64,000 bases of DNA from an uncultured Candidatus Micrarchaeota archaeon. GTDB taxonomy: Archaea; Micrarchaeota; Micrarchaeia; Anstonellales; Bilamarchaeaceae. The stretch spans positions 992,001 through 1,056,000 of the forward strand of contig OY970229.1 in NCBI GenBank assembly GCA_963714085.1. The letters are read 5' to 3'. The notes below the pieces were generated by a model that saw nothing but the letters and a program-made list of their open reading frames with translations, had not been told where the DNA came from and did no database searches. The translations under genes and the position numbers were made by a program. This document shows positions 13,409 through 43,104 of the stretch, in pieces (within the stretch, counting starts at the first letter, position 1; every line of letters starts with the position of its first letter).

Positions 13409-13888
13409 ATGATTGCGATGAGCCATCAGGAATCCCGTATACGCGTGAAACTAATCCGACGCAAACTATGCCAATTGCGTAAGGAAAAAGGCAATACCCA
13501 GTCGTACTACCGCGATCTGCCCAGGGCCGCTAAAGAGTGGGCCGAGCGTTGTCCTAAGCTGGAACCTGCCGAGATGAAGTTCGTGCTCAGGACCGTGGCC
13601 GTGCCTGAGGATTACGACAAGGTGGTCGAGCACCTCGGCAGCTGCAGCCCCAAGACCCGCAGGATAGCCGACCATGCGCTCGGCCTATGGGAGAAAGTCC
13701 AGCCCCAGATATCCATGATCACACTGAAGGGCGCTTTTTTCGACGAACGTGGAAAACTCAAATCTCATGATATCGATGCCCTTTTCAGGGAATTCAATGG
13801 TATGATCAACTACGTTCACGATCGTCTCGCCAAAGACGCGCGCATAATGAAGAAAGACCCACAATCAGATTTGTCCGAGCGCAATTAG
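13409..13888 (+). CDS. hypothetical protein, convergent with and overlapping the 3' end of the HicA-tipped giant gene
   Basis: 159-aa ORF with upstream TATA-like CTTAAA. Confidence 0.65.
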   Translation: MIAMSHQESRIRVKLIRRKLCQLRKEKGNTQSYYRDLPRAAKEWAERCPKLEPAEMKFVLRTVAVPEDYDKVVEHLGSCSPKTRRIADHALGLWEKVQPQISMITLKGAFFDERGKLKSHDIDALFREFNGMINYVHDRLAKDARIMKKDPQSDLSERN

Positions 13889-18676: not shown

Positions 18677-18993
18677 GCGTTCTCGTATTCGTAGCAGATC
18701 TCGACGAATTCGCGCAGCATGTCGATGCGGTCTTCCCTTCCGGCGCGTCCTGCGCGGAGCACGGAGTATTCCACGCCCCATCTCACGAGCGCCGTGCGGA
18801 ACCTCTTGAGCCTCTCTAGGGTCGGCGCCATGTTCCTGGGCTTCACCTTCGCGGCGTTCCATGCGGACATCGCGTTCTCTATCACAGAAACAGTCCTGGC
18901 CGCGTTCCTGAGAGTGTCCGACTCTATCTCGTCCAGCTTCTCTTCGGAAACGGTCGCTCTTCCACCGCCCTGCCGCGGCGCAATGGTTGCCAT
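18673..18993 (-). CDS. small hypothetical protein translationally coupled to the giant gene
   Basis: 106 aa; its stop overlaps the next start; TTTAAA ~25 nt upstream. Confidence 0.7.
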   Translation of the reverse strand: MATIAPRQGGGRATVSEEKLDEIESDTLRNAARTVSVIENAMSAWNAAKVKPRNMAPTLERLKRFRTALVRWGVEYSVLRAGRAGREDRIDMLREFVEICYEYENA

Positions 18994-22505: not shown

Positions 22506-24365
22506 ATGGTTTCGCTCGAGGAGAACAGGGTAAGGATGAACTACGAGGTCGCGGTCTACCGCGAGCAGCTCACCATGCTCCGCAGGGAGATGGAGAGGGT
22601 CTCGCTGACCACCCTGGACCTCACCAGCGCGGTGCAGGCCGTAAACGGGCTCAAGAACTCGCAGATACTCGCTCCGATAGGGGGCGGGGTGTACGTGAGG
22701 TCCGACATAAAGGACACCCGCGTGATCGTGCCTATCGGCGCCGAGTTCGCCGTCGACATGGAGAAGGGCGAGGCCGCGGCCGAGCTCCAGCGCAGGGTGG
22801 ACGCCACGCGCCAGGCTGTGATGAAGCTCAACGAGGAGTTCGAGAAGATAAACAAGAAGCTCCGCGAGGTCTCACTCAGCCTCCAGGAGGTAGAGCAGCA
22901 GCTTCGGATAAGCAAGCAGGTGGATGCCGGAGTGAAAGAGGATTACATCCGATTTCCCATGTTCGATTTCCTCAAGAAGAAGATAAGCGGCTTCATCGAC
23001 GGCTTCACTGGCAAGGAGGAGGCGAAGGCCGGGCCGGAGCCAGTTGAAAGAGAGCCCGAAGTCGTAGAAAAGCCAGAGCCGGCGGTTGAAAGGGAAAAAC
23101 CGGAAACAAAGCCGGAACCGATTTTTGAAAAGCCCGCGGTCGAAAAACCGCAGGTGAGAGCCGAAGCGAAGCCGGAACCGGTTGTCGCGAAGCCTCAGGC
23201 GAAGCCCGCGATTCAAACCAAACCCGTAGAGCCGAAGCCCCTGCCCGCGATTGAAACGAAGCCAATACTCGAAAAGAAAAAACCGGAACCAAAGGCGAAG
23301 CCCGAGCCCGTAATCAGGAAAGAAAAGCCTGAAACCATAGAGACCAAGCCCGCGGCCGAAAAGCGGAAGCCTGAACCGAAAGCTGTTCCTGAGAAACCGA
23401 AAACCGAAACGAAGCCCGAGCCCGCGGTCTCGCTGCCGCAGTTCCGCGAGGAGAAGGAGCGGGCGAAGAAATCCGCGGTCTCGTTCAGCCCGCTCAAGGC
23501 CATAAGGACGCTGGTGAGCCGGGAGGTCGAGATCTCCGAGGACGATGTGAAATCCCTGCTGGAGAACTTCGAGCTCGAGCTCCTAGAGAGCGACGTGGAG
23601 CTGAGCGTGGCTGAATCCATAAGGCAGGAGTTGGCGCAGAAGCTTGTCGGCGCGAAGGTGGAGAAGGCCAATCTCAGCCAATTCGTGAAGCAGGCAATAG
23701 CCACCACCCTGGTGGACACCATGTCCGTGGGGGAGCCGCTGGACATGCTCGGATACGTCAGGGATAGGGAGAAGCCGGTTAAGATAGTCTTCCTGGGCAT
23801 CAACGGGGCCGGGAAAACCACCACAATAGCAAAAATGGCCAACATGCTCATGCAGGATGGGCGCACGGTGGTGTTCGCGGCCGCGGACACGTTCCGCGCC
23901 GCGGCCATAGAGCAGATGGAGGTCCACGCGGCGAAGCTCGACGTCCGACTCATAAAGAGGGAATACGGCTCTGACCCGACATCGGTTGCCTACGACGCGG
24001 TGAATTACGCGAAGGCGCACGGCATAGACGCGGTGCTGATCGACACCGCCGGCAGGCAGGACACCAACGTGAACCTCATCAACGAGCTCAAGAAGATGGA
24101 CCGCGTCATCAAGCCCGACCTGAAGATATACATCGGGGAGTCCATAGCCGGCTCCTCCATAATCGGCCAGGTGTCCTCGTTCAACCGGGAGATAGGCGTG
24201 GACGGGGTGATACTCACAAAGCTGGACTGCGACCCAAAGGGCGGCACAGTGCTCTCGGTGTCGAAGGCGACCGGCATACCCATAATCTACATCGGGACCG
24301 GCCAGAAGTACGAGGATATCGAGCGCTTCGACGCGAAGAAGATGGCAGAAAGGATAATCTCCTAG
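22506..24365 (+). CDS. pfdA-ftsY: in-frame fusion of prefoldin alpha (22506-22949) and SRP receptor FtsY (from ATG 22959)
   Basis: PIGGGVYV and VPIGAE prefoldin hairpins; MFDFLKKKIS FtsY start, GINGAGKTTT, DTFRAAA, DTAGR, TKLD, KGG. Confidence 0.9.
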   Translation: MVSLEENRVRMNYEVAVYREQLTMLRREMERVSLTTLDLTSAVQAVNGLKNSQILAPIGGGVYVRSDIKDTRVIVPIGAEFAVDMEKGEAAAELQRRVDATRQAVMKLNEEFEKINKKLREVSLSLQEVEQQLRISKQVDAGVKEDYIRFPMFDFLKKKISGFIDGFTGKEEAKAGPEPVEREPEVVEKPEPAVEREKPETKPEPIFEKPAVEKPQVRAEAKPEPVVAKPQAKPAIQTKPVEPKPLPAIETKPILEKKKPEPKAKPEPVIRKEKPETIETKPAAEKRKPEPKAVPEKPKTETKPEPAVSLPQFREEKERAKKSAVSFSPLKAIRTLVSREVEISEDDVKSLLENFELELLESDVELSVAESIRQELAQKLVGAKVEKANLSQFVKQAIATTLVDTMSVGEPLDMLGYVRDREKPVKIVFLGINGAGKTTTIAKMANMLMQDGRTVVFAAADTFRAAAIEQMEVHAAKLDVRLIKREYGSDPTSVAYDAVNYAKAHGIDAVLIDTAGRQDTNVNLINELKKMDRVIKPDLKIYIGESIAGSSIIGQVSSFNREIGVDGVILTKLDCDPKGGTVLSVSKATGIPIIYIGTGQKYEDIERFDAKKMAERIIS

Positions 24366-24476
24366 TTACAAATACTCTTCTTTCCACATACTGATACATT
24401 TAAAAGCGTTCCCCGTAAAACGTTTTCGTTGTAAATTTTCCTCTTATTTATAATCTTTTCCCATCCATATTATACC

Positions 24477-26303
24477 ATGGGTGATACCACTTTCGCCCCG
24501 CAAAAGAAACAGGGGGAGACAGCAGCACGGAACGCGGCACTCGAGGCCGTGCCCCAGAAGAAGGAAGTGGAGAAGCTGCGCGGTCAGCTCAATGCCCTGG
24601 ACCGCCAGTACGACTTCCTGAAACAGAGGTTCGACAGCACCTGGGCCACCAACGACCGGACAGTGAAGCTAGAATCGATGTTCCTCGGAAGGAAGCCTAA
24701 CGACGACGAATTCCTGGCCATGCTCATGAACGCTGGCATGGGCGGGGAGAAGCCCATAACCAGCCAGGTCGAGAAGCTGCACCAGCAGTGCTCGGAGCTG
24801 TTCAAGAAGCTCCTGGACGCGGGGCTCGACAATTTCGCAGGCACCGACGTTTATAACCGTGTCTTCATCGGCAACGACCCGCGCTGGCAAATCGTCGTCG
24901 AATCGGCGACCGACATGCACGTCTCCTGGGGAAAACAGCAGAAGCAGCTCATGAAAGACCTCGAGCCCAAGCCCTACCCAACCATCGGGGCGCGGGAATG
25001 GGAGCCACCTACCGTGGAATTCCCTAGAACCGGGGTCGACCTGCTTCACGGGGAGAGAGTGTTCGTGGGTGAGGGCGGCAGGGTGGTCCCGGAGTCCGTG
25101 CTCACGCTGGAGCGCGAAATCAGGCGCAGGGGCCGTGTGACGCCCAAGGGCGTGAGGGTGGAACTCTCCTTCCAGGAGTTCTACGACATGTTCGTGCCCG
25201 TGCTCCCTTCCCTGGACGCCGCGATAACCAATGTCCAGGTGATGTGGGACAAGGGCGTGAGCGCGAAAGGCGTGGTTAAAGTCGTATTCAATCTCGTCAT
25301 GGCAGGGGTCGACGTGGTGCTCGTGGGCCAGCTCGCGACGAAGAGCGCCGCGCGCCTCAGCGGCAGGGAACTGATGGACTCATTGGAGAAGACCGAAGGC
25401 AGGTCCTTCATGTCCAGGCAGGAGTGGGACGTGCTCGAAACCGCGATCCGCGAGCTCAAGCCCGGCGAAGTGAACGACCTGTTCAGACTGGCGAGGCCCG
25501 CGATAGGCACAGGCTTCGATTGGACGGTGTTCGAGGAGCTGGCGCTCAGGGCAGGAGACGAGGAGGTAAGCGGAGACCTGATCCGTGCCTATCTGCGCGA
25601 GCAGACCGGTGCGACGAGACTCAGCCGCGCGGCCTGGAGGCTCAAAGCCGGCACACTTGATTTCTGCGAGAACGGGCTGAGCCTGCTCGGAAGGGAGAAG
25701 TTCAGGAAAAGAGTCGCCGCGGAGATATTCAACGAGCTCAGGATGAGCATCGACCACAAGGCGTCGAAGAGGCTCGCGGAACTTCTTGTGGAGTCGGGCA
25801 TGCCCGAGGCCTCCCGGCATCTGGCGTCCGATGCGATGTTCAGTACGCTCACCTCATTCAGCAAGGCGCCGCAGCGTGCCCTGCTCAAGCTCGTGGAGAA
25901 AGAGGGCTGGCCCAACGTCGTGGCCAGGCTGAAGAAGGACGGCCTTGAGAAGATGCTGCCCGAATACGCGGCAGCGTTCCGCTACGCGCCCATGCACAGG
26001 CTGGTGGAGTACGGTGTGTTCCGCGCGACGTTCCCCTATGCGGTGCAAGCGGTCTATGGCGTGATAAGCGACATGTCCGCGAGCAAGGTGAAGGAGCCGG
26101 AGATACTGACGTACGATGACATGCTCAGGAATTATTTCGAATCCATGCACAGATTCGGGAAACCGCTGACTCTTACGGAAGAGGAAAGACGCAGGAGATA
26201 CTCCGACCTTTCCGATAAATTAGGGAAACCGACCAAAGAGGACATACGCAAGAGATACTCTAAAGTAATGGATGAATTAGAAAAAAACGGTATGAAGAAG
26301 TGA
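24477..26303 (+). CDS. hypothetical protein (608 aa) with central hydrophobic hairpin; first gene of the giant-protein operon
   Basis: Long ORF, TTTATAA ~25 nt upstream; DMFVPVLP...VVFNLVMAGVDVVLVG segment. Confidence 0.8.
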   Translation: MGDTTFAPQKKQGETAARNAALEAVPQKKEVEKLRGQLNALDRQYDFLKQRFDSTWATNDRTVKLESMFLGRKPNDDEFLAMLMNAGMGGEKPITSQVEKLHQQCSELFKKLLDAGLDNFAGTDVYNRVFIGNDPRWQIVVESATDMHVSWGKQQKQLMKDLEPKPYPTIGAREWEPPTVEFPRTGVDLLHGERVFVGEGGRVVPESVLTLEREIRRRGRVTPKGVRVELSFQEFYDMFVPVLPSLDAAITNVQVMWDKGVSAKGVVKVVFNLVMAGVDVVLVGQLATKSAARLSGRELMDSLEKTEGRSFMSRQEWDVLETAIRELKPGEVNDLFRLARPAIGTGFDWTVFEELALRAGDEEVSGDLIRAYLREQTGATRLSRAAWRLKAGTLDFCENGLSLLGREKFRKRVAAEIFNELRMSIDHKASKRLAELLVESGMPEASRHLASDAMFSTLTSFSKAPQRALLKLVEKEGWPNVVARLKKDGLEKMLPEYAAAFRYAPMHRLVEYGVFRATFPYAVQAVYGVISDMSASKVKEPEILTYDDMLRNYFESMHRFGKPLTLTEEERRRRYSDLSDKLGKPTKEDIRKRYSKVMDELEKNGMKK

Positions 26304-26307
26304 TGTT

Positions 26308-29300
26308 ATGGCAGAAGCCCAAAAACCGCCTGAGGAGGAGCCCCCGAAAGTGAAAACACCTGCGCAACCACCGCCCGCGCAACCACCCGCGGAACAGAGA
26401 CAGCTTCCGGCGTTGACCAAGGCCAAGAGGTATGTGTTTGGCTATGACCCTGCCAAGGCAAGCGCGACCGCGGCGGGCAAAGCCAGGAAGGCACATGACA
26501 AGGCGGCAGCGAAGGCTGCGAAGAACCTAGCCGGCCCATCCGTGTACGCCGACCTGGAGGAGATGAAAACCCTCTGCGAGAAATACCGGAAGGGAATAGA
26601 TTCGTTGAGGCCTGCTGACGCGATAGAGCTGATGAAGAAGATCTACGTGCACTTGGAGACCGGCACTCTGGACGCGGACACTACGAGTTCGCTCTATGGA
26701 ATACTGGAGCGGCTCTACCTGCGGCCGAACGTGCTTGCAGCCGTTAATAGTTCTACGGACCCCATCGTCGCCAAGGGTTTCCGCCAGCATCCGGGTATGC
26801 GAGAGGCTCTCGAGAAACATATCGCCCGCTCAGCTGCAAAGAAAAAATTGACTCCGGCAAATTATCAGGACCTCGCACGGCTCAAGCCCGAGATGCGGAG
26901 GCTTGAAAATGACCAGATAATCCGGATGGCAAGGATAATAGGGAAAGACGAGGCAGACCCTGTCGCTGCCATCACTAGGTCATTCGGCGTCGGCGCCAAA
27001 GCAACCACACTGCCCGAGCAGGCGGCCCTCATGCTCGAGCTCAATTCCAAAGGGATAGTGACGGAGAGAGCGGTGGCTGAATTATACATCAATCATGCGG
27101 ATAACGCAATAGCTGCTTTGGGGAAGATGAGAACAAGTGACGCCGCGACCCAGCGCGTACTTCTGGAGATTCAAAATGATATCCTCTCCGGCAAGGTCGC
27201 CAGCGCGGACGATGCTATAGTCGGGATATTCAAGAATGAAAAGCTCAGGGAAGACCTCCAGAAGATTCTCGGTCCGGGATCCAAGTCGTTGCTCGATGAG
27301 CTCTCGAAGGCAACTAATCTGAAGGAGATGGCTGCATTGCTCAAAGGGGTGGAGAAGTTTCCTAAAGGTGTACCTAACCCGGAGCGTTTAGTAAACGCCC
27401 TAAACAGCTTTGCGGTTCCTCTCAATGCAGAACACTTCATAAATAACCTGAGTGTTATGGGTAATCGGGTCGAGCTTGTCGGCGCGCTCCAAGCAAGGCG
27501 CGTGCTGGACAGCAGCACAACGGAGATGTTCAATGCGGTACGTGCTCTCAGCCTGCAACGGGCCAAAGACATGAGGGGCCTGGGCCCGGCTGCGATTGAG
27601 ACAAGCACGAATGCCGTCGTGGGAGGGGCTAAGCTCGTCAAGTTCGGGCTCTCACCAGTCATCGCGCCAGGAACCAGAGCATTCGAGAATTTCGCGGAAG
27701 CCGAAGTCGCTAGTGTGAGGCCGAGAAAGATCATCAAGGGCACTCTATGGACTACCGCAGCCGTAGGCTCGTTTGCCTTGATGAGCTGGCTCGTATACCA
27801 TTTCGAGTGGGGCAAGGACAAGACCGAGCGCGAGGAGGCCAGGCTGAAGCTCCAGAAATTATGGAAAGTGAGTATCACCACCGCCACTGCCAACAGCATA
27901 AGGGACTCCCCCATCGCGGACGGGTTCTTCAGGAACTGGTTTGACATCCACTCGCTCGAAAAACTCGGGTCCCGTCTCGTGCCGAAGAACGATAAGGAGC
28001 TCAACGAGCTGCTGACAGAGGGAGGATCCTCGGCGTCAGCTAAGAAGCAAGTGCCCCTCTACGTACACCCGGCTTGGATAAACGAACTGGCCGCAGAGGT
28101 CGACGCACAGATAAAGGACATGAAGAAGCAGGGAAAAACCGACACTGAGATAAAGGCAGCGCTTACCGCCATGGTTACGACCAGCTGGAGGGACAAGGGT
28201 TATTTCCTGACCCCAGGGGAGGCTTTCATAGAGAGCTTCGCAAGGGACCTCTTTGGAAATGACCCTGAAAAGCGCCCCATGATAGATTACATGAAGGCCG
28301 CAGTGCTCGGCGAAAAGAAACCAGAGACCAGCGTCAAGAAACCAGAGACCAGCGTCAAGCACCCCGAGCTCTTCACGCTGCTTTGGTCCGGGATACGCGA
28401 CGGCTCGCTGCCGCGTACCTTCGCCGCGGACGTCGCATTGAACCTCTACGCTATAATCAGCGACGACACCCTGGATCCTAAGACCGGCAAGATCAAAGGC
28501 GAGCTGGCATTCGAGAGAATAAAGAAGCAATTGGAGGTGCGGAAGGCCGCGGTCTATCCGAACCTGCCTTCTGTGCGGGACACCCTGGCCAAGGCAGAAA
28601 TAACCGACCAGTACCTGCTCAAGAAGCCGATACCGCCCGGCTCGCTCATGGATATCTACGACCAGCACGTGGTCGCATCCCATGACGAGGGTATGGAGAT
28701 GGGCTTCAAGGCCGTGCTCGAAGCGTACCAGAGCGACGAGAATACAGCGGCGCGGCTGGATGCATTCAGGCTGAATCCCGACGAGGTGATATATGGGGAC
28801 GTGCCGGATATAGTGGCCCAAGTGGCTGGCGGCACGCTCACACTGGACGCCGCCAGGGACCAGCACGTAGTAGCTGACGGTATATTCGCCCGCTTTAACA
28901 CCATCAACACGGCTTCTCAATTTGACGAGAAGAACAAAGGGCTCATCGAATTCGTCTATGAGAATTCGTCTGTCTCAGCAAACGGAAAGACGCAAGGCGT
29001 GCTGGACTGGCTCAAGCGCAATGCCAAGAACATACGGAACGCCCCGAAGCTGATAGAGGATCTCGAGGCCAGCAGCGCGCTTTTCGCCGCAGCACCCATG
29101 GAAAACACCAACGACAAAGACAACCCGAGCAAATCCCAACTGTGCGACAGGCTTGCCAACCAGCTCATAGCAGGGTATATCAAGGAAGAGAAGGACCGGG
29201 GCATGCTGTCCAAAGGGTGGGGCGCGACCAAAACATGGTGGAGCGGGAAGCCGGAAGAGCTGCCTGAGCGCTGGTACGTGAGGACGAATGAGCCGTTCGT

Positions 29301-29919
29301 GAGCCATACGCCGCGCGACATCATGCCAAGAGGCCAAACCGATGTCGCGCAACCCACTCCAGTGGTGGACGTGACGAGCGCGGCATCGCTCAGGGAAAAG
29401 CTCGGCGTTCTAATCTATCCCAAGAAAAACGAGGCTACGTTCAGCCCGCAGGACAAACGGGTGAGGGAAGAGGTCTACCAAACTATCGCGGACAAGGCTC
29501 CACAGACCGCCGGCAGGAAAGGCCTCGCCGCTTCTGGAATAGAAGTGAAAGACGGCCCGGTCGGCCTTGTCATCAGCTCTCCTGAGCCAGATGCCAAGGA
29601 ATACCCCGCTTTCCAGAAGCTCGTCAGTGATGCCGTAAAAACCGAGTTGGCCACCATCGCGGTGGAAGACGCCCTGCGCCCGAGCGTGACTGCCGTGCTG
29701 AAGTCCGATAAATCCGAGAAGCCGAAGCACATCTCCGATGTCATCGGAGCGATAGCTGGTGTGATAGTGGACGGTACAGACCAGGAGAACGCAAGGCTCT
29801 CCAAGAACGGCATCAACGTGACGCGGAACAGGAAAGGGGTCCTGGTCGTGAAGGTGCCGGAGGCCACGGAAAATTTCCAGAAGTTAGTCAAGGGCATGGC
29901 AGCCGAGGTGCCCAAATAA
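26308..29919 (+). CDS. hypothetical protein (1203 aa) with one probable TM helix
   Basis: Long ORF 4 nt after the previous stop; TLWTTAAVGSFALMSWLVY hydrophobic segment. Confidence 0.8.
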   Translation: MAEAQKPPEEEPPKVKTPAQPPPAQPPAEQRQLPALTKAKRYVFGYDPAKASATAAGKARKAHDKAAAKAAKNLAGPSVYADLEEMKTLCEKYRKGIDSLRPADAIELMKKIYVHLETGTLDADTTSSLYGILERLYLRPNVLAAVNSSTDPIVAKGFRQHPGMREALEKHIARSAAKKKLTPANYQDLARLKPEMRRLENDQIIRMARIIGKDEADPVAAITRSFGVGAKATTLPEQAALMLELNSKGIVTERAVAELYINHADNAIAALGKMRTSDAATQRVLLEIQNDILSGKVASADDAIVGIFKNEKLREDLQKILGPGSKSLLDELSKATNLKEMAALLKGVEKFPKGVPNPERLVNALNSFAVPLNAEHFINNLSVMGNRVELVGALQARRVLDSSTTEMFNAVRALSLQRAKDMRGLGPAAIETSTNAVVGGAKLVKFGLSPVIAPGTRAFENFAEAEVASVRPRKIIKGTLWTTAAVGSFALMSWLVYHFEWGKDKTEREEARLKLQKLWKVSITTATANSIRDSPIADGFFRNWFDIHSLEKLGSRLVPKNDKELNELLTEGGSSASAKKQVPLYVHPAWINELAAEVDAQIKDMKKQGKTDTEIKAALTAMVTTSWRDKGYFLTPGEAFIESFARDLFGNDPEKRPMIDYMKAAVLGEKKPETSVKKPETSVKHPELFTLLWSGIRDGSLPRTFAADVALNLYAIISDDTLDPKTGKIKGELAFERIKKQLEVRKAAVYPNLPSVRDTLAKAEITDQYLLKKPIPPGSLMDIYDQHVVASHDEGMEMGFKAVLEAYQSDENTAARLDAFRLNPDEVIYGDVPDIVAQVAGGTLTLDAARDQHVVADGIFARFNTINTASQFDEKNKGLIEFVYENSSVSANGKTQGVLDWLKRNAKNIRNAPKLIEDLEASSALFAAAPMENTNDKDNPSKSQLCDRLANQLIAGYIKEEKDRGMLSKGWGATKTWWSGKPEELPERWYVRTNEPFVSHTPRDIMPRGQTDVAQPTPVVDVTSAASLREKLGVLIYPKKNEATFSPQDKRVREEVYQTIADKAPQTAGRKGLAASGIEVKDGPVGLVISSPEPDAKEYPAFQKLVSDAVKTELATIAVEDALRPSVTAVLKSDKSEKPKHISDVIGAIAGVIVDGTDQENARLSKNGINVTRNRKGVLVVKVPEATENFQKLVKGMAAEVPK
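28315..28359 (+). repeat. perfect 21-bp in-frame tandem duplication (KKPETSV x2)
   Basis: aagaaaccagagaccagcgtc x2 followed by aag. Confidence 0.9.
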
Positions 29920-29931
29920 GGAGGGAGTGGC

Positions 29932-31248
29932 ATGGCAGATAACGAGACTAGGAAAAAACTGCGTGCGTTCCTCGATGCCCTTCCCGACGAGAAGAAAGAA
30001 CCGCAGGGGAAAAACAAAGCCGAGCCGCCTACGACGATCAAGGGCGCGACGCCGAAGCGGATGCACGCCGAGAAACCACCCCGGCAAGAGAAGCCGGCAA
30101 AGACCAAAGCCGGGCGCGCCGCGAAACCAACAGCGGAAGCGAAACCCGCAGCCGAGGCGAAACCCGCGAAGGAGTCCAAGCCCATGAAGGTCGTCATGCC
30201 GACCGTGACGAAGGCGCTCAGGGGCCACAATCCGAGCGCCATAATATCCCTCGCAAGGACCAAGGACGGGCTCGAGAACCTGCTCGCGGCGGGCAGGAAC
30301 CGCGAGACGGTCTCAGCGATCATAGTCAACGGCCTGGCTGCCGTGATGAAGGCCAACGGGCTCGAGAGCCCGAAGGAACTCATCCTGAACGCCAGCTCGG
30401 ACGTGAAGCGCATGAGCCTCGTGAGGGGCTTCCTCCAGAGCTATATCGGCCCTGGCAACGAGCTCTACCAGAAGGAGATCGTGCCGCTCAAGAAATACAA
30501 GAAGGACGAGATGGGCGCTCCGCTCGACGCGGACACGGTCGTGGCAGCCGCGGACTACCTCTGGCGCTGGAGCAAGAACAACCCGAAGAACCAGCTGGAC
30601 CTCACTCCGACCCTCCCGCAGGACAAGGCGAAGGAGGTGCCGTCCATCAAGGCGCCCGAAGCCAAGGCTGACGACTCAGTGCTCGCACAGGCCAAGGGCA
30701 TGCTCGACCTTTCGACCTCGGCCAAGGCATCCGACCTGCTCAAGCTGATCCAGGACGCTGAGAAGAAAGGCGGGGCGAAGCTCGAAGACGCCAAGACCAT
30801 CGCGGTGCAGGGGCTGTTCAACGACCTCAAGTCGCACGATAGGGGTTTCACGGCCTACCTGGAGATGTTCTCGCGTTACGACACGATACGGGCGCAAGCC
30901 GATAGTCTGCGCACAGACAAGGTCGACCCGAGGGCAGACCTAGCATTGGAAGGCATCATCGGATTCCTCAACCAAAGGGCGAACATCGGCGTGTGGAGGA
31001 TAGAGAACCTCAACTGGGACTTCCGCGCGCTCAATCTCGAGCTGGGCAGGAAAGTCCCGGAAAACGGGGGCACCACCCTTCCGAAGGACAAGCCGCAGTT
31101 CGCCGATGCGCTGCTCGGCTGCGCGGTCTTACGATGGCGCCAGGCCAACCCGACCAAGGACGGTGGCGCATGGGCGAGGCCGCCGGAGCCAAAGAAGGCC
31201 GAGGAGCCGGCGTCCAAGAACAGCTGGCTCATGGAGGGGCGGCATTAA
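29932..31248 (+). CDS. hypothetical protein (438 aa) with internal two-fold repeat
   Basis: GGAGG SD; Lys/Pro/Ala N-terminal linker; duplicated module. Confidence 0.8.
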   Translation: MADNETRKKLRAFLDALPDEKKEPQGKNKAEPPTTIKGATPKRMHAEKPPRQEKPAKTKAGRAAKPTAEAKPAAEAKPAKESKPMKVVMPTVTKALRGHNPSAIISLARTKDGLENLLAAGRNRETVSAIIVNGLAAVMKANGLESPKELILNASSDVKRMSLVRGFLQSYIGPGNELYQKEIVPLKKYKKDEMGAPLDADTVVAAADYLWRWSKNNPKNQLDLTPTLPQDKAKEVPSIKAPEAKADDSVLAQAKGMLDLSTSAKASDLLKLIQDAEKKGGAKLEDAKTIAVQGLFNDLKSHDRGFTAYLEMFSRYDTIRAQADSLRTDKVDPRADLALEGIIGFLNQRANIGVWRIENLNWDFRALNLELGRKVPENGGTTLPKDKPQFADALLGCAVLRWRQANPTKDGGAWARPPEPKKAEEPASKNSWLMEGRH

Positions 31249-31273
31249 TAACATACTAAAGGCAGGAATCACC

Positions 31274-34200
31274 ATGGCAGCACCACTTCAGGTATCCCGG
31301 ACGGACCGCCAGCAAGTCGAGGCGGATGCGAAAGAGTGCGCGGCTTCGCTCAAAAGCTTCCTCGAGACGGGGAACGCAGCCAAGTACGTGCAGTTCACCG
31401 AGCTGTTCAGGAGATACTACGGATTTTCCACGTCCAAGGACGCCACCGAAGCGGAGAAGCAGAAGGGTTCCATGTTCCGCGATGTCTTCTTCGGCAAGGA
31501 GGCGTCCGGATACGCGGCCCAGCTGCGGGAAGGCAGGTCCGCCGACATGGTCTCGGCATTCGGGAAAAGCCATCCCAATGGGTTCCTGCCGAACGAGCTC
31601 GCAGACGCAGCCTATGAGGTATACTCGAAATGCACAAAGCGCGAGCGCATCCCCGAGGATTTCAACAAGAAGTACGGCGAGGACTTCATGAGAGCATCCA
31701 GGGAGGCGTACTATGCGGCGCATCCGGGCGAGATCTCGATAGCGCCGCCCTCAGAGGTGGTGCCTGTCCGCGTGCCGCCGCTCCCCCAGAGCGTCACCGA
31801 AAGCACGGTAGACATATTCCTGGGCCAGTTCGGCATGTTGGACCAGTTCTCGGCCGAGAGCCGGGACGGGAAGTACAGGGGGCTCGTCGCTACCGTGGTG
31901 ATCCCATTCAACCTCAAGAACCTGCGGGACGCGGGCGACCTCGCAGGAGCGCTCATGCAGGCCTACCAGCGCCTAGGGACCGATGACAGGGAGAGTTTCC
32001 TCTACTGGCTCTCTGGCATGGACCAGAAAGAGAGGGCTGCGCTCGGAGCTAGCGTGGTGTCCATAACCGCGGCCAGGGGAGGCACGATCCCGAACCAGGA
32101 GGTCAAGAAGAGGTTCGATGAATGGGAGTCAGCACACGTCGGCGTGCAGCAGAAGATATACGCGCTCGAAGGGAGGCTGAAGGCTTATCCGAAAGCAATC
32201 CGCGATACCACCCTTGTCCAGATGTCGGACGCGTTCGAGCAGAAACCCGGGGACTACACGCTGGAGCAGATGGAGATACGCATGGTCTACCTGCAGAAGA
32301 AGCGCGAGGTGCTCCAGCTCAAGCGCGCGGAGGGCAAATCCGAGCTCTCTTCGGTGGACAAGGAGCTCTCGGCCATGCAGGCGTGGCTGCATACCCTGGA
32401 TGTGGACAAGAAGACGCCGGACGAGGGGCTGTCCGCCCTGAGGGGCGGCTTCACCGCGCTCCAGCACGCCTACTACACCATCGACAATAACAATCTGAGG
32501 CTCGCAGACATTCTCGACTCAACGAAATCAAACGATAAGCTATTCCTCATCCTCACCAAATTCGTTTTCGAAATGGACCAGCACTCGCTCCACATACTAA
32601 ACGAGACGCGCCCAGGAGACAAAAATTTCACGAGCGTCATGAGGAGAGTCGCAGGTTCGCCAGACTTCGCGAAGGACGCGAACACGGGCAAGCAGATGTG
32701 GCAGGCTGATTATTATGGTCTGCTCTCGCCGGCTTCCGGCACCGCTCTCCCGACTCCGAACCAGACCGCCATATACCAGCGGGCAGCCACGCTCAGCACC
32801 GCGGCAGCGTTCGCCTTCAATGATTACGTCAAGACGCTCAAGGATAACGGGCTCGACACCGGCACCATGCGCTCCCAGACAGCAACCGGGCGTTATCTGG
32901 ATGCCAGTTCTGGGAAGCCAGTCTCGATACCAGCTGGGGACAAGGTGAACAGCAACGGCAAGATCGTCGACAGTTCCGGAAACGTCGTCTCCGACTATTC
33001 CAATCTGACACTCCGTGCGGAGAGCCAGGCAGCCACGTTCGACCCGACTGGCACGAGGACCCTGGTCGCGAACGCGGTGGCCGCGCTCAATGCCGTGCAT
33101 CCTGCGCTGGTTGTCACATACTTCAATGCGATACGGCACGTGGCCGAGATATGCGAGCAGGATCCCACCTCGTTCCACAACGCGCTGAGCGAGATGACGC
33201 TCAGCATCGAGGCCGAGACCAGCGTCCTCACATCCCGCAGCTCGCCAGCCAATACGCTGCCAACCAACATCCGGAAGACCATGGAAAGGCTTGGCCGGGC
33301 CCTGGAGGAGGTCGCGAAGATAAGCAAGGGGACAATCGCGCAGTTCGACAGGTTCAACCTCCTTGACAGGTATCTGCTCATAGACCAGACCCCGCCGCAC
33401 CTGATACACCAGAGGACGCCCAGCTGGGCGCCAAGGCTCTTATCCTCCCAGTCGCAGCTGGGCGGCCTGTTCACGCCGTCCCCGTTCGGCAATTTCATAA
33501 TGTCTCCGGTTCCAGGAGGCCTGTTCACATCGGGCGGGGTCTACACGTCCCAGCCCAACTACGGCGGCGGCCTGACGCTGCCTACCATGAGGCCGCTCCA
33601 GGTGCACACCTCCGTGGCCGCGGTGCAGGCGGCCATGTTCAGCTACCTCTATCCGCAGCATCCGGTGCTGTCCATATCCTCCATGCTTCCGGGCGTGACC
33701 ATCCCCAAGATGAGCCCCACGAAGCTCCTCATCGAGATCCGGCGCTCGTTCGTCCAGACCGACAGGCCGCAGTACGCCAGCCTCAGGGACGTGGTCAGCG
33801 GAGGCATGGCACTCGGGCTGACAGGCACAAAGTCCTCGGACGACTGGGTCATCGGAGGCGGCGGCCTCGGCACCCTGCTCACGCCCACAGGCGGAGCTGC
33901 CATCGGCGGCATGAAAGACCTCAACGGTACTTATGGAGGGATGTCATGGCTTGCGGTCCCGATCGGCACGGTCAAGGGGAAGGAAGTCACCCTGGACACC
34001 TCGGTGACAGGTGTGGAGAAGGACATGGACAACTCATGGAAGATACTCCAGCGCGCGATAACCACGCAATGGGACCCGAAGAACCCGAGCCAGACGCTGG
34101 TGGTCGTCAACAGCGACGCCACTGCGGATGGCAAATGGTACACCACCGCGAGGACCGTCCTGGTGGAGAAGGACGGCACGATATATGACCTCAAAGGAGG

Positions 34201-36271
34201 GCAGGACGACCTGGTGCCGATGCTCAACTTCATGGCAGGATTCGTGAACAAGGCGTTCGCCACGCCCTCTACCGTTGCATTCGACTACGAGCCGACGGTG
34301 CAACGGGGCGGAGGCGCGCTCGTGTTCGACTTGGGCAGGACGCCCCTGCTTTTCGAGGCCCAGTCCATACCGTTCCTGGAGCCGACCGGCACGCCCCAGC
34401 CTCTTCTCGTGCAGTGGACGCTCGGGGGAGCGCACACAGCGGAAACGACGGGCGGGAAGACCGACATACAGGCCGTCGCATTCCCTGGCCAGATGCTCCA
34501 GCTCAAGCCCGGCAGCGACGCCGGCAATCCCGGGAGTTACAAGATGCAGGGCGTCGACTACATGTTCAGGCGCGTGAGGAAGGATAGGGCATGGGAGCTG
34601 TCCATGGGCGGAGATTACGCCTCCACGCCCGTGGGCTCGGAGGGCGGGGCAGGATTCTTCATAAAGACCCAGCAACCTGGTTCCAGGCTCGGCGGCGGCA
34701 TCTCCTACGAGGCCAGCGCGACGAACCTGGAGGCGCTCGCCATGCTGCAGCAATCCCAGGAGGCCGTGGACTACGTGAACAGCATACACAGGATCGCGAC
34801 CACGATCTACGGGAGCAAGCAGTTGTCCACCAACTGGGAGGCGGGCAGCCTCCTCTACGTGGTCAACCAGCTCCAATCGCAGCCAGGCAAGGGCCTTTCC
34901 TACGACACCACGTTCTACAGGGCGGTCGGCCTGCTCAGGGGCCTGAAATTCGCCGGCAGGTTCGATTTCAGCAGGATGAGCGGCATGGACGACATGCTGG
35001 CCGCATACGATAGCATGGCATCCAAGGTCGGCAACGATCCCACCCAGGCCGCGAGCCAGATAACCGCTTTCCAGCAAAAATACTCGCCGCAGTACCTCCA
35101 GCAGGTGCTGGACAAGTACTACCTTGGCGTACAGGTGAACAAGGATTTCTCCATAGAAGGGCTCGTGGTGGCGCAGGAGGACGAAAACAAATTCTCGAAG
35201 CAGGTGCCTGACACCGTGTACGCAAGGAGCCTCTGGACCTGGAAGGCCGGAGAGCGGACCGGATTCTTCAGGGCCTTCGCCTCAATGCCGGTGATGGTCT
35301 CCGGGGGAGTCAACCTGCAGAACTCCACCACGCAGGTCGGGCTTGTCGGAGCCGGCACGGGCTTCGACGTATTCGACTCGGTGTTCCTCCAGCGCATAGC
35401 CGCGGACGCGGGCATGATAGTGTCGAGGATAGAGAACGACACGACCTCCACCCAGATAGAGAAGTGGGGCATCGACGCCTCGAAGAACGAGGGCGGCTTC
35501 TTCGTGCAGGGAGCGGCTGTCGCATATTCAGGTTTGGCCGAGGACTCGAGGTCCTACCGGAGGCTGGTCGAGAACCTGGACAAATTCAAGGCCATGATCA
35601 GCGCCGGCGTATTCTCGCAGATCCCGACGCCCGTGCGCGAAGCCATGTGCCAGGACTTGGATCCGGCAACGTTCAAGCCCACGGAGATCCAGGACATCCG
35701 CGAGGGCAGGGACTTCAAGCCGTCCACGAGCCAGGCGGGCGACCTCGAGGACGGGCTTTGGAGGAACTGGTTCTCCGAAAGGAAGACGGACCTGCAGGAG
35801 AAGTTCAACGGCAACATGCGTGTGCTTCTCGGAGCCAGCCGCTACAAGTATTTCGGCGGCCCGGCCTACTGGGACATCGGCACCTTTGTGGAATACGTGG
35901 ACAGCTTCAAGCTGTACGCCATAGCAGCCAAGCGCGAGGAGCTGGGCCTGTTCACCGGCATGGAATACAAGAAGGACAGCCTGAGAATGGCGCTCGGAGG
36001 AGGCGTGACGCGCACGAGCATAGGCGGCTCGGCATCCGTGGGATACACGTTCATAAAAGCCGGCATACCGATGGAGGTCGGGGTGTCCGGCTACGGGACC
36101 GCGGCGGACCTGCCGCAATACGCTGCGCCGATGTATACGACTGTCCCGCGCACATTCACGCCGCAGTTCGGGGTAATGTTCTGGTACACGATCGGCGCCC
36201 AGGGGCCGCCGACCTTCATGCAGGCCACACCGAGCACGACATTCGGAGGTCCGGCAGGGCAATATCATTAA
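31274..36271 (+). CDS. 1665-aa protein, helical N-half and beta-strand-rich (beta-barrel-like) C-half
   Basis: Start reset to ATG 31274; many alternating hydrophobic/Gly/aromatic strands from ~33790 to the end. Confidence 0.8.
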   Translation: MAAPLQVSRTDRQQVEADAKECAASLKSFLETGNAAKYVQFTELFRRYYGFSTSKDATEAEKQKGSMFRDVFFGKEASGYAAQLREGRSADMVSAFGKSHPNGFLPNELADAAYEVYSKCTKRERIPEDFNKKYGEDFMRASREAYYAAHPGEISIAPPSEVVPVRVPPLPQSVTESTVDIFLGQFGMLDQFSAESRDGKYRGLVATVVIPFNLKNLRDAGDLAGALMQAYQRLGTDDRESFLYWLSGMDQKERAALGASVVSITAARGGTIPNQEVKKRFDEWESAHVGVQQKIYALEGRLKAYPKAIRDTTLVQMSDAFEQKPGDYTLEQMEIRMVYLQKKREVLQLKRAEGKSELSSVDKELSAMQAWLHTLDVDKKTPDEGLSALRGGFTALQHAYYTIDNNNLRLADILDSTKSNDKLFLILTKFVFEMDQHSLHILNETRPGDKNFTSVMRRVAGSPDFAKDANTGKQMWQADYYGLLSPASGTALPTPNQTAIYQRAATLSTAAAFAFNDYVKTLKDNGLDTGTMRSQTATGRYLDASSGKPVSIPAGDKVNSNGKIVDSSGNVVSDYSNLTLRAESQAATFDPTGTRTLVANAVAALNAVHPALVVTYFNAIRHVAEICEQDPTSFHNALSEMTLSIEAETSVLTSRSSPANTLPTNIRKTMERLGRALEEVAKISKGTIAQFDRFNLLDRYLLIDQTPPHLIHQRTPSWAPRLLSSQSQLGGLFTPSPFGNFIMSPVPGGLFTSGGVYTSQPNYGGGLTLPTMRPLQVHTSVAAVQAAMFSYLYPQHPVLSISSMLPGVTIPKMSPTKLLIEIRRSFVQTDRPQYASLRDVVSGGMALGLTGTKSSDDWVIGGGGLGTLLTPTGGAAIGGMKDLNGTYGGMSWLAVPIGTVKGKEVTLDTSVTGVEKDMDNSWKILQRAITTQWDPKNPSQTLVVVNSDATADGKWYTTARTVLVEKDGTIYDLKGGQDDLVPMLNFMAGFVNKAFATPSTVAFDYEPTVQRGGGALVFDLGRTPLLFEAQSIPFLEPTGTPQPLLVQWTLGGAHTAETTGGKTDIQAVAFPGQMLQLKPGSDAGNPGSYKMQGVDYMFRRVRKDRAWELSMGGDYASTPVGSEGGAGFFIKTQQPGSRLGGGISYEASATNLEALAMLQQSQEAVDYVNSIHRIATTIYGSKQLSTNWEAGSLLYVVNQLQSQPGKGLSYDTTFYRAVGLLRGLKFAGRFDFSRMSGMDDMLAAYDSMASKVGNDPTQAASQITAFQQKYSPQYLQQVLDKYYLGVQVNKDFSIEGLVVAQEDENKFSKQVPDTVYARSLWTWKAGERTGFFRAFASMPVMVSGGVNLQNSTTQVGLVGAGTGFDVFDSVFLQRIAADAGMIVSRIENDTTSTQIEKWGIDASKNEGGFFVQGAAVAYSGLAEDSRSYRRLVENLDKFKAMISAGVFSQIPTPVREAMCQDLDPATFKPTEIQDIREGRDFKPSTSQAGDLEDGLWRNWFSERKTDLQEKFNGNMRVLLGASRYKYFGGPAYWDIGTFVEYVDSFKLYAIAAKREELGLFTGMEYKKDSLRMALGGGVTRTSIGGSASVGYTFIKAGIPMEVGVSGYGTAADLPQYAAPMYTTVPRTFTPQFGVMFWYTIGAQGPPTFMQATPSTTFGGPAGQYH

Positions 36272-36306
36272 AAAGATAGCACGAGTGGTTTCAACGGGGT
36301 TATCAC

Positions 36307-36690
36307 ATGAAACTTGAGAACATGGAACTGGTTTTCTGCGATGCGAGGAAGAACACTGCCACTGCGTCGAAGACCATAAACACGAACATCGCGCTCACCT
36401 CGGTCTCGGAGCAGAAGGGCCAACTCAAGGTGGAGTTCGAGCACACGGTCACCTACGATCCGGACGGCAGCCACATACGCACCGGGGGCAGGGCGGTCTA
36501 CTCCGGTAGCGAGGGCAAGGCCGCTGCCGACGAGTGGACGAAGAACGGCAGGATCACCGGGGCTTCCGGGGAGTTCATCATGAACTCCATAAACTACGCC
36601 GCATCGGTGAACGGGGTGCTCATAGCGCGGGCGTTCAACCTGCTGCCCCCCGTGGCGCTTGCGACGCTTGCGTTCACGCCCAAGAAGTGA
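36307..36690 (+). CDS. small protein, possible archaeal SecB-like fold
   Basis: Four beta strands (VEFEHTVTYDP..HIRTGGRAVY) then helices ending NLLPP. Confidence 0.5.
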   Translation: MKLENMELVFCDARKNTATASKTINTNIALTSVSEQKGQLKVEFEHTVTYDPDGSHIRTGGRAVYSGSEGKAAADEWTKNGRITGASGEFIMNSINYAASVNGVLIARAFNLLPPVALATLAFTPKK

Positions 36691-41655: not shown

Positions 41656-43104
41656 TTATTTGGGCGTAATCAGCCAGTTTAAGAACGCGAGTACACCATA
41701 GCCGACGAGCGGAAGACCTATTAGCGTTAGGATAATCTGAGCTGCTATCTGACGCTCGGAATTCCAAAAAGTTTTGCCCGGTTTCTGAAACCTGCCAAGC
41801 TCCTGTTCAGATTCCTCTGAGGCGACCGGAGCCGCTCGTTTCGTTGGGGCTGGCGGCCGAACAGGCGCAGCGCGAGCCGGAGGTACCGCAGGCCGTTGAA
41901 CCATTGGAACTGGAGGCCGGACAGGCGCAGGCCGGGACGCTTGTTGCGCAGCAACCGCCAGTGGATGTTCGAGTTTCGTAGCTAGCGGCCGAAGAGGAAC
42001 AGCTGTATGCGCCGGCTCCGAAGTCGATGTGCCGTCGTCACGACGTACTATCCTCGTCAACTTCACTCTCACAGACCCGAACATCAGTTCGTCGCCTTTC
42101 CTAATCGGTCCTTTGGTGGTTCTTATTCCATTGACGTAAGTGCCGTTGCTAGAACCGAGGTCGACTATGTGGCAATCGGTATCAGTCAGTTCTATCAATG
42201 CATGCATCTCCGAAACCGATGGGTCGTCGATGTACACAACCGAATACGGGAGTTTGCCTATGCTGATGATGTCGCGTTTCAGATAGGGTCTATGCCATAC
42301 CTTGATTTCCTCGAACGCCGGACCGTCTGGTCTCAATTCGGAAAACCCGATGAAAGAGCTGCTTTCTTTTGCATTGGCAAGTGCCGACACCCTAACAATT
42401 GGCGCCGATTCCTGGACAGGCGCAGCGCGAGCCGGAGGAGCTGCCGACGTCTGAACAGAGGCAGCTGCATGTGTCGGCTCTGAAGCTGACGCATCCGGGC
42501 TCCATTCTATCTTCGTCACCATCAATTTCACATCTCCCACTCTTATCTCGTCGCCTTGCTTGATGGACGGTCCCGCTCCCCACATGGAGATTCTTTTTCC
42601 ATTGACATAAGTGCCTTGGGAACCACAATCCACTATCATGCAAACAGTCCTGCACAGCTTTATTGCCGCATGCCTCTTCGAAACTGTCAAGTCGTCGACG
42701 ACGATATGCGAATTCTCGAGTGTCCCTATTTCAATGTTGACTACGGCGGCGTCCAGATTAGATCCATGCACCGTGATTTCCGGGCCTAGCGAGTCGTCTG
42801 CTCTCACTTCGCGAAACACAAACGAAGATCTGCTCGGGTTTATATGATGACCTACTGACACCCGGCCAACAATTGGAGCCGCCGCCTTAGCAGCAGGCGC
42901 AGCCGCTTTTTGAGCAACGGCCGGTGGAGCAACTTGAGCAGGCGCGTCTGCACTCCTCGCGCCTTCTGGCTGGATTTTGTGCGGTTCCAGTGCGTCAGCC
43001 GCCGGCTTTGCTTGGGGCGGTCGGTTTCCAGACGGTTTGCTTCCTTGAGCCAGGAGCGCTGCCCTGAAGCTTGCTAGGACCGGATCGACGTTCTTTGCCA
43101 TCAC
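41656..43104 (-). CDS. double FHA-domain protein with C-terminal membrane anchor
   Basis: VSKRHA..DCGS.GTYVNG and VSEMHA..DLGSSNGTYVNG; C-terminal TM segment. Confidence 0.88.
   Translation of the reverse strand: MMAKNVDPVLASFRAALLAQGSKPSGNRPPQAKPAADALEPHKIQPEGARSADAPAQVAPPAVAQKAAAPAAKAAAPIVGRVSVGHHINPSRSSFVFREVRADDSLGPEITVHGSNLDAAVVNIEIGTLENSHIVVDDLTVSKRHAAIKLCRTVCMIVDCGSQGTYVNGKRISMWGAGPSIKQGDEIRVGDVKLMVTKIEWSPDASASEPTHAAASVQTSAAPPARAAPVQESAPIVRVSALANAKESSSFIGFSELRPDGPAFEEIKVWHRPYLKRDIISIGKLPYSVVYIDDPSVSEMHALIELTDTDCHIVDLGSSNGTYVNGIRTTKGPIRKGDELMFGSVRVKLTRIVRRDDGTSTSEPAHTAVPLRPLATKLEHPLAVAAQQASRPAPVRPPVPMVQRPAVPPARAAPVRPPAPTKRAAPVASEESEQELGRFQKPGKTFWNSERQIAAQIILTLIGLPLVGYGVLAFLNWLITPK

Follow-up and report, generated by a model that had tools for sequence, protein, structure and literature searches.

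A predicted giant membrane beta-barrel and its SecB-fold partner in a Micrarchaeota archaeon

Two adjacent genes of a Micrarchaeota archaeon, D and E, are supported as two parts of an undescribed envelope or host-interaction machine: D is predicted to be a giant membrane beta-barrel and E a partner with the SecB fold, and no known family was matched by either. They belong to a five-gene locus (A to E; Table 1) that lies between ftsY and a convergent trm56 in the window, a stretch of 64,000 nucleotides of a genome that consists of a single contig of 1.57 Mb. A sequence-only reading had proposed such a machine, and for D and E the proposal stands. The five genes are, as it described, co-oriented and closely spaced, with gaps of 4 (A-B), 12 (B-C), 25 (C-D) and 35 nt (D-E); their reading frames lack internal stops and have GC3 values of 0.70–0.85. 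For none of the five proteins did Pfam, NCBIfam or PHROGs give a family match with an E below 0.05, in agreement with the same reading. Pfam and PHROGs likewise gave no S-layer or viral match, the kind of match that this reading had named as a refutation, and viral contigs scanned with short patterns for D and C contained neither. Elsewhere in the genome, an S-layer-type gene is present (E 1.4e-13). Another giant gene, with a hairpin and a HicA tip, sits 5.6 kb upstream of the locus.

Table 1. Features of the locus, in positions of the window.
Feature	Position	Strand	Description
TATA box of A	24447–24454	+	At -30, leaderless promoter; score 15.4, reached by 0/6428 internal ATGs
Gene A	24477–26303	+	608 aa, accessory; no family
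Hydrophobic hairpin of A	25194–25346	+	Residues ~240–290
Gene B	26308–29919	+	1203 aa, accessory; C-terminal half conserved; no family
Marginal membrane segment of B	27748–27807	+	Residues ~481–500
Shine-Dalgarno motif before C	29920–29927	+	Sequence motif; C has no TATA box
Gene C	29932–31248	+	438 aa
Helical repeats of C	30394–30579, 30934–31155	+	Two repeats
Deletion junction	31232–31233		~125 nt absent relative to the 88%-identical relative L097
TATA box of the retained D start	31244–31251	+	At -30; score 11.3 (0.09% of the 6428 internal ATGs score as high); same spacing in homologs
Gene D	31274–36271	+	1665 aa
D, N-terminal region	31274–33340	+	Residues 1–689, less conserved; 590–689 helical in the model, 1–589 not folded
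D, plug-like segment	33341–33796	+	Residues ~690–841; structural matches pair it with the plug of TonB-dependent transporters
D, predicted barrel	33797–36193	+	Residues 842–1640, 38 predicted amphipathic strands; Pro-rich tail to 36271
TATA box of E	36268–36274	+	At about -39, overlaps the D stop codon; score 13.7; position in line with the second peak of the genome at -37/-38
Gene E	36307–36690	+	127 aa; predicted SecB fold

The structure model of residues 590–1665 of D (pLDDT 77.8, pTM 0.67, from an alignment of 21 sequences) contains 38 consecutive strands, and three of the five models have pLDDT values of 76–78. On the model strands, the lipid-facing side has a mean KD of 1.25 against -0.30 for the inside, a contrast that was reached by one of 2000 within-strand shuffles; a cruder lag-2 hydrophobicity test over the whole sequence gave no alternation in the barrel region (-0.03). 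Seven of the eight loops longer than 10 residues follow odd-numbered strands (13, 15, 19, 23, 27, 29 and 37), the sole exception being the loop after strand 30, a helical insert of 95 residues. The even strand count and the loop asymmetry suggest the topology of outer-membrane proteins (OMPs). Each of the 50 VIA-align matches listed is a membrane barrel, the best with a Z of 13.2 and an rmsd of 10.3. TM-scores to known barrels are only 0.1–0.2. The nearest named ESM-Atlas clusters all belong to OMP-type families (0.82–0.83, a lead only). A PDB sequence search with D returned no match. Structure prediction is in line with the earlier description of D as beta-barrel-like, and points to an outer-membrane-type barrel of roughly 38 strands that is likely to form a wide pore. 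We regard it as very unlikely that this barrel is a modelling artefact and that the strands of D instead make up a sheet that stays open, a pair of smaller barrels or a soluble shell that carries lipid, resembling apoB or vitellogenin. The pTM, the small alignment, the null lag-2 test and the second rank of apoB100 in the Foldseek search (TMq 0.08) would fit an artefact; the agreement among three models, the strand count, the loop pattern and the uniformly barrel-type structural matches and clusters argue against it.

Transmembrane beta-barrels count as a trait of diderm bacteria and their organelles. The top structural matches of D are TonB-dependent transporters (FecA, FptA, BtuB) and LptD (Z 12–13.7; rmsd mostly 8–11 Å, TM 0.1–0.2), in which, as in D, a plug-like N-terminal segment precedes an amphipathic barrel. 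Their barrels have 22–26 strands. D differs in its 38 predicted strands, where a TonB-dependent transporter has 22, in the lack of a Pfam match, and in its helical parts, a large N-terminal region and two inserts. A parallel in size is the giant single-chain barrel SprA/Sov, the translocon of type 9 secretion (PDB 6h3i), which has 36 strands (PMC10994853, partial text). The match between SprA and D, with a Z of 8.9 and an rmsd of 5.0 for 183 aligned residues, spans model positions 255–1053 and has rank 42 among the matches listed. By contrast, no Pfam, NCBIfam or PDB-sequence similarity links the two; D is archaeal and half as long, and its plug-like segment is built in, whereas SprA has a separate Plug protein.

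The model of E (pLDDT 93.6) displays the SecB fold, with four strands and two helices. All ten top Foldseek matches are Rv1957 or SecB (TM 0.49–0.65, probability 1.0), the best being the TAC chaperone Rv1957. The structure prediction and Foldseek check recommended by the sequence-only reading, run for D and E, thus returned a membrane barrel and a SecB fold, respectively, and the predicted fold agrees with its SecB-like assignment of E. The likeness to SecB and Rv1957 (PDB 1qyn, 5mtw) is one of fold, with TM up to 0.65, and not of sequence: E did not match PF02556, a profile comparison with E. coli SecB gave a probability of 0.1%, and a PDB sequence search found nothing. Moreover, this archaeal paralog is associated with a giant barrel, not with SecA or an antitoxin; to our knowledge, archaea have no SecA. 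Nearly every genome searched contains a protein of this kind, and E is a second copy linked to the barrel, the first copy here being located at G000:C1:959572-959970.

The conserved core of the locus is D with E, and A, B and C are patchy. D was found in 10 of 60 relatives, A in three and B in four, while E lies directly 3' of D in all 19 readable loci. D-type genes, or one of two alternative giant genes (D2 and D3), are present in 22 of 37 family genomes; in the other 15, which are incomplete genomes, no giant gene was found. A giant gene is present in 20 of the 22 genomes with at least two E matches; of the 39 that have a single E match or lack one, 3 contain such a gene. In a congener (G001), the giant gene after A-B-C is another one and the E copy lies in the opposite orientation; upstream of many D loci there are only housekeeping genes. 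The expected conservation of co-occurrence and order was consequently seen for the D-E pair and not for A, B and C. Swapping of alleles at one chromosomal slot between congeners fits a role in host interaction. D3 is homologous to D (hhalign probability 98%, E 1e-14), whereas hhalign detected no homology of D2 to D or D3 (probability ≤1.2%); D2 appears barrel-like from the look of its sequence and its terminal residue only. The last residue is F, W or Y in 18 of 24 complete C-termini of the D2 and D3 families, kin that are not independent, compared with 74 of 1270 ORFs of this genome, and presumably resembles the beta-signal of BAM substrates. D-type proteins, this D included, instead end in a Pro-rich tail. 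Bacterial homologs of D may exist among the distant relatives. An Acidobacteriota match (L098; 62 residues, E 3e-5) is likely due to chance.

Promoters were scored with a TATA matrix built from 131 of 608 ORFs of the same genome with clean upstream regions, against a background of 6428 internal ATGs. A, D and E each carry a TATA box of their own, which contradicts the single promoter proposed for all five genes. The region upstream of B scores 7.1 (reached by 0.2% of internal ATGs), and C is likely read from an A-B-C message, to judge by the motifs before it. A scan for sigma-70 promoters and terminators, of a type that does not apply to archaea, stayed at chance level. The separate TATA boxes, the patchy A and B, the exchanged giant gene in G001 and the housekeeping-only upstream regions led us to reject a fixed five-part operon.

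Among the accessory proteins, A has one hydrophobic peak (KD 2.12 at residues 265–283), consistent with the hydrophobic hairpin assigned to it. By eye, this hairpin resembles what we take to be a PT-TG/pre-toxin region; Pfam gave no such match for A or its homologs. The single transmembrane segment attributed to B is marginal: no window of B itself exceeds a KD of 1.4, and three homologs reach 1.39–1.54. The two repeats of C were confirmed. In the C family, 2 of 13 repeats match PG_binding_1 (PF01471; best E 2.6e-4) and the helix-insert-helix motif is alike, whereas C itself has no match, a long insert and no catalytic domain; the best genome match of the family, 18.4 bits, is below the cut-off of 23, and a PDB search with the repeat profile found no peptidoglycan-binding structure. 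A held-out member of the C family adjoins another D locus (E 4e-15), and in two relatives (L132 and L136) a protein with a weak PG_binding_1 match adjoins a small signal-peptide protein ending in F. The proteins of the C slot thus bear a weak sequence resemblance to peptidoglycan-binding domains. The ESM-Atlas neighbours of C are unnamed phage clusters (0.91–0.92, a lead only).

The locus could also encode an antibacterial weapon, in which D would be a released pore-forming toxin, A to C co-toxins, and E the protector of the producer, as in toxin-antitoxin-chaperone modules. The monomeric, plugged, multi-strand barrel predicted here is unlike oligomeric pore-forming toxins; in addition, no gene for a small immunity protein or antitoxin is present, A to C lack a catalytic domain, and a chain of 1665 residues would be costly for a simple lesion. 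We therefore hold a weapon to be improbable to a marked degree, even with the Rv1957 match of E, the hypervariable giant genes, the hairpin-plus-HicA giant upstream, and the peptidoglycan hydrolase homologs of archaea, notably Nanoarchaeota (PMC12352652, partial text), in its favour.

D lacks a signal peptide here because of a deletion of ~125 nt relative to L097, which removed the old stop of C, the upstream promoter of D and most of its signal-peptide-like leader. An assembly error is ruled out, since a contig from a second study (X2 record 12) bridges the C/D junction (31160–31443) with 0 differences. The observation that the five genes carry no signal peptide is correct for this locus and does not extend to the D family: a crude test found signal-peptide-like leaders in 20 of the 22 giant genes, and most D relatives have two in-frame starts, one with and one without such a leader. 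Of the 20 leader-bearing genes, 12 retain a separate TATA box for the signal-less start, which suggests that a cytoplasmic form matters. Dual starts are no evident habit of the genome: of its 1887 early internal ATGs, 44 score high, and none of these looked convincing on inspection by eye. In yeast genes of the SUC2 type, two promoters give secreted and cytoplasmic forms; the two in-frame starts and two promoters are alike here, in archaeal membrane-barrel genes and at the level of DNA motifs only.

These features bear on the main rival to the reading preferred below, namely that D is a plugged, gated pore inserted from the cytoplasm into the single membrane of the archaeon. Its helical domains would lie inside and its long loops outside, like a SprA in one membrane, and it would serve either to release folded proteins that lack a signal (A, B, C and the HicA-tipped giant) or, at a contact site, to take up large molecules. 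The retained signal-less start with its TATA box, conserved in relatives, the cytoplasmic E, the plug-like segment and SprA-like size of D, and the large neighbours without signal peptides are consistent with such a pore. It leaves the terminal aromatics of D2 and D3, the peptidoglycan-binding-like neighbour and the Sec-type leaders of most relatives without account, and many D loci lack large signal-less neighbours. We know of no precedent for a 38-strand barrel in an energised membrane without an insertase, and consider this pore unlikely, if plausible.

A search for Omp85/BamA (PF01103, E 0.01) matched none of 61 genomes, the control being matched in 7 of 14, and a crude screen found no second membrane barrel in the genome; a signal-bearing candidate (G000:C1:215212-217020) was rejected as DUF4015 glycosidase-like. 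D therefore departs from bacterial BAM-assembled OMPs in its deleted Sec signal peptide and in the missing Omp85 match. The latter, the S-layer-type gene and the glycosidase-like nature of the sole other signal-bearing candidate make an outer membrane of its own unlikely for this archaeon. For Micrarchaeota ARM-1, an inner and an outer membrane were reported from thin-section electron microscopy (PMC8784108, partial text), and the Sec-type leaders of most D homologs and small OMP-like proteins in two relatives would suit a diderm lineage with D as main channel or translocon; in cryo-tomography, however, the outer layer of ARM-1 was reinterpreted as an S-layer (PMC11329633, partial text), no giant gene was found in the 15 incomplete family genomes, and D here cannot use a signal peptide. 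We judge such a lineage quite unlikely.

The reading that we tentatively prefer, as a serious possibility rather than a probability, is that D, aided by a chaperone, ends up as a giant pore in the outer membrane of a diderm bacterium that is its host or prey. E would likely keep D unfolded in the archaeal cytoplasm until delivery to a contact site, where D would insert into the outer membrane of the partner, helped by the partner's own BAM machine, and form a wide channel. C would likely grip the cell wall, and A and B would likely be swappable membrane-active accessories; nutrients might leave the partner through the pore, or A, B and the HicA-tipped giant enter it. This placement is favoured by the OMP-type model of D, the missing Omp85, the terminal aromatics of D2 and D3, the PG_binding_1-like C slot, the linkage to a SecB-fold E, the leaders on 20 of 22 giants and the allele swapping. 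Against it count the intact, signal-less D and the equally signal-less A, B, C and E, the Pro-rich tail of D, the unmatched C, the low TM-scores, the lag-2 null, the cytoplasmic-form TATA boxes, the lack of profile homology of D2 to D, and the hosts of Micrarchaeota named in PMC12892359 (partial text), which are archaea. The trans-envelope conduit or effector apparatus proposed earlier stays one option for the archaeon's own envelope, and the bacterial-type features point at least equally to that of a partner. More speculatively, DPANN archaea would parasitise or prey on Gram-negatives by inserting the largest known single-chain barrel (38 strands) into the victim's outer membrane, probably via its BAM, anchored by an archaeal peptidoglycan-binding protein, with two promoters giving exported and cytoplasmic forms of D that could align in the membranes of both partners to form a cross-domain junction; this we find doubtful.

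The existence of a bacterial host for any DPANN archaeon is stated to be an open question (PMC8204110, partial text), which the locus makes directly testable. The same partial text describes giant murein-transglycosylase proteins of Woesearchaeota and Pacearchaeota, likewise lineage-specific large DPANN proteins, with a proposed role in bacterial-wall attachment; they belong to another phylum and have an enzyme domain, none being detected here, and a barrel is not mentioned in that portion. The literature searched, mostly without subscription papers, held no work joining Micrarchaeota, beta-barrel and outer membrane, and no title on archaeal barrels; the words barrel, outer membrane, peptidoglycan and secretion occur 0 times in the available main text of PMC12892359. 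Barrels predicted to exceed the 36 strands of SprA, in S-layer archaea without detectable BAM, would need a novel way of insertion or a target membrane that is not the archaeon's own. The pair of starts is a further peculiarity open to test, and a very wide monomeric pore would also be of interest to membrane-protein engineering.

The five genes of the locus, A to E, were found as the sequence-only reading had them, separated by gaps of 4, 12, 25 and 35 nt and enclosed by ftsY on one side and a convergent trm56 on the other, in a 1.57-Mb genome comprising one contig. Searches of Pfam, NCBIfam and PHROGs returned no match better than E 0.05 for any of them, in agreement with the earlier description of them as unknown proteins. 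The D homologs are labelled Candidatus Bilamarchaeum sp., from a genus of Anstonellales, and Micrarchaeota archaeon.

Positions of the genes and of other features (in the window unless a genome, contig or locus is named; G, C and L numbers denote genomes, contigs and loci, G000 being the genome of the window and G001 its congener; D2 and D3 are alternative giant genes)
Feature	Position	Strand	Description
A	24477-26303	+	608 aa
B	26308-29919	+	1203 aa
C	29932-31248	+	438 aa
D	31274-36271	+	1665 aa
E	36307-36690	+	127 aa
Prefoldin alpha and ftsY	22506-24365	+	single open frame, 619 aa; possibly a genuine fusion, or else two starts
HicA-tipped giant	13865-18862	-	1665 aa; hydrophobic hairpin near residues 500-625; C-terminal HicA domain
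Small ORF	18673-18993		overlaps start of HicA-tipped giant
FHA protein	41656-43104	-	two FHA domains, E about 1e-28
FHA protein	43118-45283	-	tandem with preceding; two FHA domains, E about 1e-28
Very long ORFs	G000:C1, e.g. 337404-378431, 1399728-1424693, 1-24177, 310666-330843		several, 6,700-13,700 aa; some start signal-peptide-like
Additional gene	L056:14814-19100 (G001)		1428 aa, central hydrophobic segment, between ftsY and A homolog; no family in Pfam passes the cut-off
D2 then D	G143:C10:6723-17455 (L104)		single locus, E copy after each
D2 then D3	G267:C15		single locus
Two inserted genes	L021:10319-11714 (G003)		between C-slot gene and D
Weak PG_binding_1 proteins	L132:1415-6437 (G025:C2); L136:5658-8136 (G018:C3)		adjoin small Phe-terminal signal-peptide proteins, 554 and 236 aa; OMP-barrel look, no Pfam family

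The AlphaFold2 model of D (residues 590-1665, 21 sequences; pLDDT 77.8, pTM 0.67) predicts helices, a plug-like segment and then 38 consecutive strands (residues 842-1640) with helical inserts, and thus upholds, at the level of structure prediction, the proposal that D is barrel-like. Across the homologs, mean KD is 1.25 on one strand face and -0.30 on the other, a contrast reached by one of 2000 shuffles; a cruder lag-2 test on the whole D sequence found nothing. Seven of the eight model loops longer than 10 residues lie on the same side, a pattern of bacterial outer-membrane proteins. The best Foldseek matches were FepA, FecA and LptD; apoB100 ranked second, and none of these exceeded a TM of 0.2 to the query. 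When the model was compared with 48,161 chains using VIA-align, all 50 matches listed were membrane barrels; the rmsd was mostly large, as a wider barrel would be expected to give. The match to SprA, which is described as having 36 strands (PMC10994853), extends over the whole span, with 183 residues aligned (Z 8.9, rmsd 5.0). A D profile gave 60 matches at E 0.001 among 1.84 billion representative proteins, the ten names looked up being uninformative, and a pattern scan of viral contigs found neither D nor C.

For E, the ten best Foldseek matches of the model (pLDDT 93.6) are all Rv1957 and SecB, with probability 1.0 and TM values of 0.49-0.65, so that the suggested SecB likeness holds for the predicted fold; tests of E against SecB by sequence were negative. 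D and E form the constant link of the locus: apart from two of the 21 D loci that stop at a contig edge, E lies immediately downstream on the same strand in 19 of 19. From the fold and this linkage we infer that E chaperones D.

The five genes did not prove to be a fixed set: the search of 60 relatives found D in 10, B in four and A in three, and the congener carries a different 2180-aa gene after A-B-C, with its E copy flipped. All 10 D genomes are among the 36 of the same family; when the phylum as a whole was sampled, a profile of D matched 22 of 401 genomes, and 19 of these matches came from the 75 same-family genomes. The order A-B-C-D-E is complete in a near relative (L097, identity 57-94%) and in another genus (L106, A identity about 24%), and housekeeping genes alone lie upstream of many other D loci. 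Two alternative families occupy the slot of D: D3, a homolog of D according to hhalign (98%, E 1e-14), and D2, for which homology to D is undetectable. At least 22 of 37 family genomes have D, D2 or D3, a lower bound since the genomes are incomplete and the D3 search covered part of them. E is the second copy of a protein with matches in 59 of 61 genomes; on the genome lists from the D, E, D2 and D3 searches, a giant gene is present in 20 of 22 genomes with at least two E matches versus 3 of the 39 that have at most one, counts in which kin are non-independent. In G003, G033 and G005 (L030, L066), D-type genes are each split between two ORFs; these breaks, like the two-gene insert in G003, are signs of turnover or assembly error.

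Using a TATA matrix trained on 131 of 608 clean-upstream ORFs of the genome, A and D scored 15.4 and 11.3, both with leaderless spacing; among 6428 internal ATGs taken as background, none reached the score of A and 0.09% that of D. A TATA element lies at about -39 of E, that of B is weak (7.1), and C has a Shine-Dalgarno motif and no TATA. The single promoter once proposed for all five genes thus gives way to likely transcription units A-B-C, D and E, as judged from these motifs.

Most giant genes begin with a leader, basic and then hydrophobic, which in several of them runs to an Ala-Gln site; their second in-frame ATG stands 28-30 nt after a TATA box located within the leader coding sequence. 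By a crude leader test that some non-signal sequences also pass, 20 of the 22 giant genes examined bear a leader; internal starts scoring at least 9 were found in 12 of these 20, in all five leader-bearing neighbour genes (11 examined) and in none of 48 control ORFs of the same loci (140 examined, 28 with an ATG in range). Since the residues over the box vary while A/T-rich DNA and spacing are kept, the constraint looks like one on DNA, and the motifs suggest two starts in leader-bearing giant genes. In the genome of the window, a deletion of ~125 nt took most of the D leader together with the promoter upstream of it; the contig of a second study spans the junction with no differences, implying that this genome can make only signal-less D.

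C contains two copies of a motif that it shares, across several genera, with the genes preceding D, D2 or a B-like gene, consistent with its earlier description as a two-repeat protein. A held-out gene adjoining another D locus is found by the repeat profile (E 4e-15); one slot gene (L023) escapes it. PG_binding_1 matched 2 of 13 C-family repeats (best E 2.6e-4), with genome search scores under the cut-off, and did not match C itself. The hydrophobic hairpin assigned to A was retrieved and is conserved; of the single transmembrane segment assigned to B, one membrane segment was found, and it is marginal. The model is at its weakest in the putative roles of A and B.

Complete D2 and D3 proteins end in F, W or Y in 18 of 24 cases (13/18 and 5/6, respectively) versus 74 of 1270 ORFs in the genome of the window, and these ends resemble the BAM beta-signal; D-type proteins have a Pro-rich C-terminal tail, not F/W/Y. 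Omp85 (PF01103) had no match in the 61 genomes searched; of 14 controls, 7 were positive. Given a predicted topology of the outer-membrane protein type, C-termini like beta-signals, a partner resembling wall-binding proteins and the swapping of alleles, in cells with no BAM detected, we tentatively place the putative D pore in a diderm bacterial partner. A gated pore in the archaeon's own membrane is a close, somewhat less likely alternative, kept in play by the signal-less D, the conserved cytoplasmic start, the weak peptidoglycan evidence and the absence of any known host, all of which count against the bacterial partner. An S-layer-type gene is present in the genome; one further candidate tested from a crude barrel screen proved glycosidase-like. 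In the micrarchaeon ARM-1, two membranes were described in thin sections (PMC8784108), and the outer layer was reassigned to an S-layer by tomography (PMC11329633).

Judged by the predicted structures, the D/E system would function much as a giant outer-membrane channel that has a plug and a dedicated SecB-fold protein, its closest likeness. D is similar to SprA in size and to TonB-dependent transporters in layout, but the system falls outside these and SecB by sequence, strand number or absent partners. The fold class is already known; what appears to be undescribed so far is the system as such, its presence in archaea, the number of strands predicted and the dual-start design, and no prior description was found in the open text of the literature searched (including PMC12892359, PMC8204110, PMC12352652 and PMC6349945).

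Among the flanking genes, the HicA-tipped giant (PF07927, E 1.6e-6, over the cut-off) looks like a polymorphic toxin; its G001 homolog, about 61% identical, indicates that the true start is probably about 62 codons in. The tandem FHA proteins have Pro/Ala-rich linkers and one hydrophobic segment, and in a relative's locus (L107) a gene for a Ser/Thr kinase stands two genes upstream of trm56, the neighbour of the D homolog. A secretion or contact system might be regulated by phosphorylation.
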